Assembly (NCBI RefSeq): GCF_051903065.1
Contig: NZ_CP178438.1
Length of the DNA: 64,000 nt
Origin: Escherichia coli
GTDB taxonomy: Bacteria; Pseudomonadota; Gammaproteobacteria; Enterobacterales; Enterobacteriaceae
Strand: one strand, 5' to 3'
In this document: piece by piece, positions 13,403 through 64,000 of the stretch
Layout: every line of letters starts with the position of its first letter
Numbering within the stretch: position 1 is the first letter of the stretch
The notes under the pieces: generated by a model
Told to the model about the DNA's origin: nothing
The model's input: the letters and a program-made list of their open reading frames with translations, nothing else
Databases searched by the model: none
Translations under genes and position numbers: made by a program

Positions 13403-13858
13403 CGGTTTATCCCCGCTGGCGCGGGGAACACGTGTGGCACTCTGCGTCTGGTATTAAATCATTCGGTTTATCCCCGCTGGCGCGGGGAACACCCGCCACG
13501 CCGTGCGCATCAACAGATATACGCAGGTTTATCCCCGCTGGCGCGGGGAACACAAACCGAAACACACGATCAATCCGAATATGAGCGGTTTATCCCCGCT
13601 GGCGCGGGGAACACCGAAAAGGCACCGTGCCGGTGACGTTCAATTCCGGTTTATCCCCGCTGGCGCGGGGAACACCGTTTTCACTCACTGGCAATCTCCG
13701 AGCAGAGCGGTTTATCCCCGCTGGCGCGGGGAACACGTGCGAATACCGTGTAAAAAATTAGTGTTATTCGGTTTATCCCCGCTGGCGCGGGGAACACTCA
13801 CGGTAGCGCCACTGCGCGTCGGTGACGGGCGGTTTATCCCCGCTGGCGCGGGGAACAC
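13403..13858 (-). CRISPR. CRISPR array 1 (type I-E): 8 repeats, 7 spacers of 32 nt
   Basis: 29-bp repeat CGGTTTATCCCCGCTGGCGCGGGGAACAC at 13403, 13464, 13525, 13586, 13647, 13708, 13769, 13830 (61-bp period). Third repeat starts with A. AT-rich leader on the high-coordinate side, so transcription is on the minus strand. Confidence 0.97.
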
Positions 13859-20115: not shown

Positions 20116-20144
20116 CTGTTCCCCGCGTCAGCGGGGATAAGCCC
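20116..20144 (+). repeat. Solitary degenerate CRISPR-repeat-like element in the cas3-cse1 intergenic region
   Basis: cTGTTCCCCGCGtCAGCGGGGATAAgCCc is 24/29 identical to the crRNA-sense repeat GAGTTCCCCGCGCCAGCGGGGATAAACCG. Stem CCCCGC/GCGGGG is intact. crRNA sense is on the plus strand, opposite to the cas genes and to both arrays. Confidence 0.75.
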
Positions 20145-20166
20145 TGGCGTCATCCGACGCCAGGGC
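20141..20166 (-). terminator. Strong hairpin 4 nt downstream of cas3 stop (possible cas3 terminator)
   Basis: GCCCTGGCGTC-atcc-GACGCCAGGGC, 11-bp stem; on the cas3 sense strand it is followed by the repeat-derived hairpin and a TTTTTG run. Confidence 0.5.
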
Positions 20167-20169
20167 ATC

Positions 20170-22869: not shown

Positions 22870-23061
22870 ATTTTAAAAATTATCTGTGATATATATCAGC
22901 CAATAAAACATTTATATTGTGAATAAATTTATGATTTTCATTTGAAATTCATAATAATAAATAGAGACAATATATTCACATAAAAAATATAAATTTAAAA
23001 AAGGGTGCAGGAGACCAAACCATCACAATTCAATACGCGGGGTTTTACCCCCGCGTGGTGG

Positions 23062-23214
23062 CTACTTCTTCGATTCGTAAGCGAGAACAGCCTTAAACTC
23101 CATACCACGTTCTCTGATACTCAACTCACACAACGAGTCACCTACCATCAGCGTGAATCCCAGTACTGTACAACACAGTACGATGATTGCCACAAGGGCA
23201 TATTTTGTCAGCAT
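23062..23214 (-). CDS. Hok/Gef-family type I toxin (HokE-like small membrane peptide)
   Basis: 50-codon ORF not in the track (below size cutoff): [50 protein letters not shown]. Hok signature (TM helix, SLCE, AYE) and a GGGAGG Shine-Dalgarno 7 nt upstream. Location matches the known hokX/sokX locus between cysH and cas3. Confidence 0.75.
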
Positions 23215-23478
23215 GTCTTGCCTCCCTGCAAAGAAGAGACTAACATTCGAATTGCTTAGGTTCGAACGCTGGCCTCAGGTTGATAGAAATATCGCCTGGG
23301 GCTTTTGTCCATCTGGAACCTCGCGAATGCTTAACGCCAGACAGCCTCAAGCACCCAACACCATTCTATACCTGTTAATTCTTCCAGCGGCGTTCACGTT
23401 TAAAATCAGGAATGCTGCTCGCAAAATAAAAACGCCCCCATCATTTCTGACAGAGGCGTTTAATTTATCCGGCAATAT

Positions 23479-24213
23479 TTACCCTTCGTGTAACCCACAT
23501 TCCCTTTTTAAGCCAAAGAAACGCGTTTCTTCTTCAGCCATGCCGGGTTCCCATTTACGGGTTGTATGGGTATCACCAACCGATAAATATCCTTCATCCC
23601 ATAATGGGTGATATTTAAGGCCATGTTTTTGCAGGTACTGATAAATAGTTCGGTTATCCCAGTCGATAATCGGCAGCACTTTAAATACGCCACGCTGAAT
23701 TGCCAGCACCGGTAAATTGGCGCGGCTGCCGGATTGTTCGCGGCGCAGGCCAGCAAACCACGTTTGCGCGTTAAGTTCTTTCAGCGCCCGGTTCATCGGT
23801 TCGACTTTGTTGATGTCATTGTACTTTTCAATGCCTTCAACGCCCTGTTCCCACAGTTTTCCGTAGCGTGCTTCCTGCCAGGCTGCGCTTTCGGTAGCAC
23901 GGTACACTTTCAGGTTGAGCTTGAGTTTGTCCGTTAACTCGTCAATAAAGCGGTAGGTTTCCGGGAACAAGTAACCGGTATCGGTGAGGATCACTGGAAT
24001 ATCCGGGCGAATCTGATTCACCAGATGCAGGCTCACCGCCGCCTGAATGCCGAAGCTGGAAGAAAGCACATATTCACCGGGCAGATTATCCAGCGCCCAG
24101 GCTACGCGGCCTTCAGCGTCCAGTTTTTCCAGTTGGGCGTTAGTTTCTGCCAGCGCCAGAATGCGATCTACCTTCGGCAGTTCGTTCAGGGCGTTTAGAT
24201 CGAGTTTGGGCAT
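23479..24213 (-). CDS. cysH: Phosphoadenosine phosphosulfate (PAPS) reductase
   Basis: Protein [19 protein letters not shown]... through ...ECGLHEG. Start placed at internal ATG (24211-24213); track ORF extends 51 codons upstream. Confidence 0.95.
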
Positions 24214-39319: not shown

Positions 39320-39458
39320 TGGTTATCCCCGCTGGCGCGGGGAACATAAGTTCGACAACTTAAAAAATGATAACAAGTCCGGTTTATCCCCGCTGATGCA
39401 GGGAACATAATAAAAACTTTAACTAGTTCGGTTTATCCCTGTTTTTACAAGGAATATT
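39320..39458 (-). CRISPR. Decayed CRISPR remnant: three degenerate type I-E repeats with irregular spacing
   Basis: tGGTT-ATCCCCGCTGGCGCGGGGAACAT (39320-39347), CGGTTTATCCCCGCTGATGCAGGGAACAT (39380-39408), CGGTTTATCCCTGTTTTTACAAGGAATAT (39430-39458); intervening segments 32 and 21 nt. Confidence 0.8.
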
Positions 39459-40976: not shown

Positions 40977-41554
40977 TGGTTTATCCCCGCTGGCGCGGGG
41001 AACTCGTACTGACGGATAAAAATAATACCTTTTGCGGCGGTTTATCCCCGCTGGCGCGGGGAACTCGTCAACGTTTTTCATGTGGGCATGAGTTGGGGCG
41101 GTTTATCCCCGCTGGCGCGGGGAACTCTATTCGGCCTCGTGCTGGTCGTGACAAAATACCGGTTTATCCCCGCTAGCGCGGGGAACTCTGGCGATATTGC
41201 CTACCGCAACAAAGAAAATACGGTTTATCCCCGCTAGCGCGGGGAACTCATCCACGAATCCAGTGCAAATGAGTTTGTTGGCGGTTTATCCCCGCTAGCG
41301 CGGGGAACTCATTGTGACTACCACCGATAACCCCGCAACCACCGGTTTATCCCCGCTAGCGCGGGGAACTCCTGCATTCGCCTGCGGTTATCAGATCGCT
41401 AAACGGTTTATCCCCGCTAGCGCGGGGAACTCGCTGCCATTACTTCCCGCCAGCGTTGCTCTGGCGGTTTATCCCCGCTAGCGCGGGGAACTCGCAGAGA
41501 ATCGTTCGATTGCCCCTACATCTTCCGGTTTATCCCCGCTGGCGCGGGGAACTC
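40977..41554 (-). CRISPR. CRISPR array 2 (type I-E): 10 repeats, 9 spacers of 32 nt
   Basis: 29-bp repeat CGGTTTATCCCCGCTGGCGCGGGGAACTC at 40977, 41038, 41099, 41160, 41221, 41282, 41343, 41404, 41465, 41526. Repeats 4-9 have CTAGCGC instead of CTGGCGC; repeat 1 starts with T. Leader on the high-coordinate side. Confidence 0.97.
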
Positions 41555-63839: not shown

Positions 63840-63882
63840 AAAGCAACCTCAATAAGAAAAACTGCCGCGAAGGATAGCAGGA

Positions 63883-64000
63883 ATAAAAAAAGGGAGCACT
63901 GTATTCACAGTGCTCCCGGTTCGTTTCGCAGCATTCCAGCTACATTTGTTGCTCCCTGCTCATCCTTGACAACTTTTCCTCTGGCCTTGCGGCCAATCGT
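63883..64000 (-). ncRNA. csrB: 3' portion of the CsrA-sequestering sRNA CsrB (continues beyond window end)
   Basis: Minus strand reads ...CAAGGATGAGCAGGGAGCAACAAATGTAGCTGGAATGCTGCGAAACGAACC followed by terminator GGGAGCACTGTGAATACAGTGCTCCC + T-run; GGA-containing motifs and the expected position next to yqcC. Confidence 0.8.

Follow-up and report, generated by a model that had tools for sequence, protein, structure and literature searches.

Does the interval between cysH and cas3 in this Escherichia coli genome hold a complete type I toxin-antitoxin module, and if it does, how could the toxin be translated? The question is raised by a short open reading frame on the minus strand of a 64,000-nucleotide stretch of contig NZ_CP178438.1 (assembly GCF_051903065.1), referred to here as the window, in which a first-pass annotation made from the sequence alone had seen an intact toxin gene of the Hok family. 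We are confident that this is the hokX (HokG)/sokX type I toxin-antitoxin locus on the E. coli chromosome; within the hok/sok family its nearest relative is hokE. The module is already catalogued: it is annotated, named and partly characterised, and it is not new. [quoted passage not shown]

Table 1. Features of the hokX/sokX locus, in window coordinates.
Feature	Position	Strand	Description and basis
hok toxin ORF (hokX = hokG)	23062..23214	-	ATG start, 50 codons encoding 50 aa; from the ORF list
hok Shine-Dalgarno box GGGAGG	23221..23226	-	6 bases 5' of the hok ATG; direct sequence reading
Inferred full-length hok mRNA	22997..23356	-	~360 nt; 5' end at Rfam model position 1, 3' end at the T6 run after fbi
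Candidate hok promoter -10 box TAGAAT	23363..23368	-	Ends 6 bases before the inferred +1; direct reading
tac element GGGUGCUU	23349..23356	-	mRNA 5' end; pairs with fbi in the full-length minimum free energy (MFE) fold
ucb element GCCCCAGG	23295..23304	-	Pairs with the GAGG box (CCUGAGG) in the full-length MFE fold
GAGG box	23273..23276	-	Counterpart of the hokB/hokC mok Shine-Dalgarno; leader alignment with hokB, hokC and hokE
sokT hairpin	23236..23276	-	Predicted, formed only after 3' trimming; 9-nt loop CCUAAGCAA (23260-23252)
12-codon upstream ORF	23208..23246	-	AUG at 23246, UGA at 23210-23208 overlapping the hok start (AUGCUGA); candidate mok substitute
3' UTR hairpin CGCGGGG-GUAAAA-CCCCGCG	23036..23055	-	In the MFE structure and in the homologue consensus fold
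fbi element GGUCUC-CU-GCACCC	23003..23016	-	Complementary to the mRNA 5' end; followed by T6 (23002-22997)
SokX antisense RNA gene	23254..23312	+	59 nt; 57/59 identical to annotated K-12 sokX b4701 (2 mismatches)
Sok promoter	23218..23246	+	-35 TTGCCT (23218-23223), 17-nt spacer, -10 TAACAT (23241-23246); by geometry
UACG motif, Tyr46 codon	23076..23079	-	A at 23078; TadA-type A-to-I editing context; the only TACG in the ORF

The open frame encodes a known Hok-family peptide

A profile search matched the ORF peptide to the Pfam family HOK_GEF (PF01848) over the entire model (positions 1-42 of 42, E=6.3e-10). Published criteria drawn from 1264 Hok peptides list residues that are conserved in more than 80% of them (M1, C16, T18, L30, C31, E32 and E41 in logo numbering), and further require Y or C at position 48, followed by GAA; the ORF peptide carries all of these at a two-residue offset, as M1, C14, T16, L28, C29, E30, E39 and Y46-E47 (UAC GAA). 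Against the HokA equivalog model NCBIfam NF007290 the peptide scored 53 bits, below the curated cut-off of 89 bits, and with only 24 of 50 residues identical to K-12 HokA, an identity as HokA was ruled out.

RefSeq calls the same peptide WP_000956458.1, “Hok/Gef family protein,” and it recurs in O157, O55:H7, ST131 and many further strains. An exact-sequence look-up placed it on at least 1000 contigs, and returned the names “protein HokE” and “Putative protein HokG” (UniProt HOKG_ECO57). The 611-base intergenic query is 100% identical to strain 23CRST027, where WP_000956458.1 also lies between cysH and cas3. The locus has been described more than once: one paper finds hok and sokX adjoining cysH in 90% of 237 uropathogenic strains, the rest having sokX only in the manner of K-12; a second names the locus hokX, first noted in E. 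coli B and intact in strain NRG857c; a third enters hokX/sokX in a gene inventory. The position beside the CRISPR-Cas region is likewise part of published descriptions.

The first-pass annotation was right about the frame, its start and translation and the GGGAGG box, and its statements that the peptide belongs to the Hok/Gef family, is closest to HokE and sits at the hokX/sokX position agree with the profile match, with the comparison to the K-12 paralogues and with the SokX gene found here. The novelty that it implied did not survive, the gene being annotated in RefSeq, named in UniProt and tested in the literature. The probability that the frame is open by chance in an intergenic region is negligible: a frame of such short length could arise in this way, but this one has matches in Pfam, Rfam, RefSeq and UniProt, is conserved across genera and shows a low dN/dS (see below).

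Distribution of hokX and its loss in K-12

Of 5426 complete E. coli genomes, 4215 carry the ORF together with its 3' UTR (coverage of at least 80%), always on the chromosome; no plasmid copy was found among the E. coli records of this set. The exact 65-nt leader allele of the window, with its sokT loop CCUAAGCAA, is carried by 571 of the 5426 genomes, and other strains show the loop variant CCCAAACAA or a loop shorter by one base.

E. coli K-12 MG1655 can be aligned with the window from cysH over the entire leader and through the hok ATG, after which divergence is complete: a 5-codon stub (MCISL) replaces the toxin ORF, the K-12-type cas3 follows, and the K-12 annotation at the locus consists of sokX (b4701) alone. 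This bears out what the first-pass annotation had said of a nonfunctional hok in K-12. The reference strain, having lost the toxin ORF, is thus the exception, and pipelines based on K-12 annotation will miss hokX. The breakpoint on the cas3 side falls at window position 23212, directly after the hok ATG (~3501 of the K-12 locus), and the Cas3 proteins are divergent variants, of 899 aa in the window and 888 aa in K-12.

In BL21, a derivative of E. coli B, homology stops just past the 3' hairpin, where an IS421-family element begins, and fbi is lost. This arrangement is seen at locus positions 218-1675 of BL21-AI, equivalent to window position ~23036. In the E. coli B lineage the cas genes are also gone at the IS421-family element, and the hok ORF is intact (allele C15F).

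Two groups of matches were set aside. Many of the hits from scanning the genome collection with a 17-base pattern lay in distant phyla and were ignored as unrelated chance matches, and records labelled Pseudocitrobacter were not counted as an independent genus, their cysH being E. coli-like (98-100% identical at the protein level). On the Pseudocitrobacter-labelled contigs (L024 and L046), CysH and Cas3 or Iap share 81-100% identity with their counterparts in the window, which suggests misassigned or contaminating E. coli contigs, or a very recent transfer.

The hok mRNA and its predicted fold

Rfam family RF01794, which is named “sok” and in practice describes the hok mRNA leader, matches the 158 bases at 23199..23356 (-) over its full model length, scoring 111.7 bits where the gathering cut-off is 59 (E=3e-26). 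At the other end of the inferred transcript, homology to other strains, including those without cas genes, stops at the T6 run. The candidate TAGAAT box is kept in the Escherichia, Citrobacter and Klebsiella copies, and the sequence 5' of the box diverges; no good -35 box was seen upstream of TAGAAT, and a promoter scan did not flag a hok promoter. A strong terminator-like hairpin after cysH (23430-23461, -) separates cysH transcription from the hok unit, and sub-threshold Rfam matches to ctRNA_p42d and Spot 42 at 23421-23521 are simply this cysH terminator hairpin. Elsewhere in the window, the small RNA CsrB is represented by its 3' part at 63882-64000 (-) (Rfam RF00018, 135.7 bits), cut by the window end.

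The 360-nt transcript is predicted to fold with a minimum free energy of -130.6 kcal/mol (z=-4.2 relative to shuffled sequences). Nucleotides 1-6 (GGGUGC) pair with nucleotides 349-354 (GCACCC, 23008-23003) and those from nucleotide 9 onward with GGUCUC, bringing tac and fbi together; the Rfam consensus gives tac a different partner, AAGC-CCC, i.e., ucb. In the same full-length fold the sokT bases, which form the Sok-target region, are paired with the 3' region (nucleotides 328-339). When 35-55 nt are cut from the 3' end in silico, the sokT hairpin emerges with its loop facing the 5' tail of SokX, and tac is predicted to pair with nearby sequence instead. A closed-to-open switch on 3' trimming has been described for the hok mRNA of plasmid R1, and the predicted folds of truncated hokX mRNA reproduce a switch of the R1 type.

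When 16 homologues from Escherichia, Citrobacter and Klebsiella are folded to a consensus, both the tac/fbi and the ucb/GAGG helices are kept, with 10 compensatory pairs. The sequences had been trimmed on GGGTGC and GCACCC, so the tac/fbi core is no independent test, and GCACCC is present in all 16 full-length copies of the consensus fold, the other copies having been dropped before that step.

All three of the elements that the first-pass annotation had proposed to look for by folding the minus-strand transcript, fbi, tac and ucb, are present in the predicted 360-nt structure. It had also pointed to a GC hairpin downstream of the ORF as compatible with fold-back. The hairpin exists, at 23055-23036 and not at the 23046-23058 first given, and the fold-back element is not this hairpin but fbi, GGUCUC..GCACCC at 23016-23003.

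SokX and its promoter

An antisense Sok RNA had been anticipated around the 5' end of the toxin gene, and SokX is encoded there on the plus strand. Its predicted fold, with a single-stranded 5' tail, a terminator hairpin and a U tract, is like those of SokB, SokC and SokE. The plus-strand promoter that should drive it fits by geometry, the Sok +1 lying 8 bases past the -10 box relative to the annotated sokX start, and it agrees with only 8 of 12 consensus positions, for which reason the automatic scan left it unreported. That scan reported neither the Sok nor the hok promoter, and both were placed by homology and geometry instead. Bases 23228-23246, which lie outside the search pattern, are invariant in 16 of 16 aligned sequences. 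The GGGAGG box belongs to a block that is invariant among the homologues sampled and is partly fixed by the search pattern itself.

The canonical mok start is missing

In hokB and hokC the mok AUG stands 7-8 nt past the GAGG box and 8-10 nt inside the Sok 5' end, and in plasmid R1 the mok AUG is likewise 7-8 nt past the GAGG box. Leader alignment shows UCG in the window where hokB, hokC and the Klebsiella homologues have the mok AUG, and no start codon (AUG, GUG or UUG) was found in range after the GAGG box of the window or of any other Escherichia or Citrobacter copy sampled. The canonical mok frame, starting 7-8 nt past GAGG and translated through the hok start region, is therefore absent from the window, and the overlapping mok that the first-pass annotation expected alongside Sok is not there in that form. 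The Klebsiella homologues have an ATG 7 nt past the GAGG box, in frame with hok and opening a 67-codon Mok-Hok frame, where the Citrobacter and Escherichia copies have UCG or an equivalent non-start triplet. These homologues with a mok AUG come from the Klebsiella oxytoca group (loci L042, L048, L049 and L052) and are located elsewhere in the genome.

The R1 mok gene is reported to have 70 codons, starting at nucleotides 116-118; mutations in its start codon abolish toxicity, and its translation is needed only up to the hok initiation region. Since translation as far as the hok initiation region is all that R1 mok has to provide, the 12-codon upstream ORF, which overlaps the hok start, could in principle serve as mok. 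It is found in 16 of the 16 copies compared, with stop variants of UGA to UAA. A clear Shine-Dalgarno box is lacking in front of it, and its AUG is complementary to the Sok -10 box, which could by itself explain why the AUG is conserved.

Two other frames were considered as mok and rejected. The ORF from the AUG at 23312 varies in length with the allele (6, 18, 23 or 34 codons), and this AUG is missing in the Citrobacter and Klebsiella copies, despite a good GAGG box 6 nt upstream. An N-terminal extension in frame with hok, of the kind seen in mokC, is open back to the TGA at 23277-23275 and holds no start codon.

Selection on the toxin and evidence of expression

The loss of the mok AUG might have uncoupled hok and left a translationally silent relic, in which the mRNA and SokX are made and the peptide never is, the open frame surviving only through its short length and the close kinship of the strains. 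The canonical mok AUG occurs in no Escherichia or Citrobacter copy sampled, the R1 start-codon mutations show what its loss can do to Hok toxicity, and wild-type chromosomal hok loci are reported to be inactive in killing assays (for hokA, hokB and hokC, no post-segregational killing was seen), all of which is what such a relic would predict. The pattern of substitution argues the other way. Among 11 E. coli strains, 9 hok codons are polymorphic and these yield one amino-acid change (C15F), with pairwise dN/dS of 0-0.18; between the Escherichia and Citrobacter copies, both of which lack the mok AUG, dN/dS is 0.07-0.08 at a pS of ~0.5. All of the residues conserved in the Hok family are kept, and the GGGAGG box and the upstream ORF ending on the hok AUG are invariant. 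We therefore consider a silent relic improbable; judged from the sequences, dN/dS values of 0-0.18 indicate that the peptide is still made despite the missing mok AUG.

Published data bear on expression and toxicity. In a study of ten uropathogenic clinical isolates, A-to-I editing of hokG was seen in 10 of 10, at 10-37%, and the validation primers of that study match the window exactly (23193-23212 and 23053-23072). Editing at A23078 would turn Tyr46 into Cys, a change that has been described in other Hok peptides; in HokB, editing gates toxicity. An EDL933 ribosome-profiling table lists reads over ‘sok_15/sokX’, which are not decisive on translation. In a toxicity screen available as a preprint, the identical peptide is construct 46_982 (LRP171); 42 of 45 constructs were toxic, and 46_982 is not one of the three named as non-toxic; the HokX peptide is therefore probably toxic on forced expression.

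Because the canonical mok start has been lost, yet strong purifying selection persists, we tentatively suggest that the lineage formed by hokX/hokG of Escherichia and Citrobacter together with hokE may use another translational gate, either termination-reinitiation at the mini-ORF or mok-independent initiation at GGGAGG. We hold this to be possible rather than likely; if true, either gate would be a variation on the mok-dependent scheme of the textbooks.

Relation to cas3 and the CRISPR-Cas region

One could also imagine a functional tie between hokX/sokX and the type I-E CRISPR-Cas system next to it, in which the toxin-antitoxin would, for instance, guard cas3 or act as an addiction module for it. 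What invites this idea is adjacency and shared orientation only: hokX sits between cysH and cas3, on the same strand as cas3, and ~128 bases separate the hok 3' end from the cas3 ATG downstream. The distribution does not follow the cas genes, however, as strains without cas genes retain hok beside cysH and iap, and K-12 keeps cas3 without the hok ORF. Neither cysH nor cas3 was found near the Citrobacter and Klebsiella homologues in the surrounding sequence examined, and a published survey places hok near defence systems in 12% of cases against 9.4% expected at random, i.e., with no enrichment. On this distribution we rejected a functional CRISPR-Cas link, which we regard as highly improbable, and the adjacency of hokX and cas3 looks incidental. 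The first-pass annotation had called such a link conjecture, and nothing in our analysis supports it.

Some features of the CRISPR-Cas region itself were recorded. The window holds type I-E CRISPR arrays at 13405-13856 (8 repeats, on the cas2/iap side), 39321-39406 (2 degenerate repeats) and 40979-41552 (10 repeats), the last of which mixes two repeat variants, CGCTGGCG (four copies) and CGCTAGCG (six copies). A solitary CRISPR-repeat-like sequence, GCTTATCCCCGCTGACGCGGGGAAC, with 2 mismatches to the type I-E repeat core, is located at 20118-20142 (-), just past the cas3 stop codon and after a perfect 10-bp hairpin (CCCTGGCGTC-GGAT-GACGCCAGGG, ~20146-20169). It lies on the cas-sense strand, in the orientation opposite to that of crRNA repeats. 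The identical strain 23CRST027 carries it as well; the K-12 cas3-casA spacer does not.

A working model for hokX/sokX

By analogy with R1, the full-length hok mRNA would be an inert store, with tac paired to fbi and ucb lying over GAGG. Slow trimming from the 3' end would render the mRNA translatable and able to bind Sok. As long as SokX is being made, the duplex of SokX and hok mRNA would be destroyed; should SokX fall, Hok would be translated and would damage the inner membrane. With no canonical mok start, hok may be translated directly from the strong GGGAGG box, or its translation may be coupled to the 12-codon upstream ORF.

Comparison with known systems

The locus is the same gene as the hokX/sokX (HokG) described next to cysH, its peptide being identical to WP_000956458.1 and HOKG_ECO57, and it shows no difference of substance from hokX/sokX of other E. 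coli, which have the same flanks, cysH on one side and cas3 or iap on the other. The hokB/mokB/sokB and hokC/mokC/sokC loci of K-12 share its leader architecture and the size (57-59 nt) and shape of the Sok RNA; unlike hokX, they have an annotated mok, and the hokX peptide is only 16-19/50 identical to theirs.

With R1 hok/sok, hokX has in common a peptide of the Hok family, an antisense Sok directed against the leader, the tac/fbi fold-back, the ucb element over the GAGG box and a structural switch after 3' trimming, which for hokX is predicted. It differs from R1 in having no start codon at the place equivalent to that of R1 mok and in being chromosomal, and the two peptides share 21 of 52 aligned positions.

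The closest paralogue is hokE/sokE of K-12, with 39 of 50 residues identical and a common MLTKYAL N-terminus, at a chromosomal site that differs from that of hokX. Neither hokX nor hokE has an AUG past the GAGG box or its equivalent, and both carry one at the same point of the 3' arm of the sokT hairpin. The hokE AUG lies 12 codons before hok and in its frame, whereas the hokX spacer is 4 nt shorter, so that the frame ends instead at the UGA overlapping the hok AUG.
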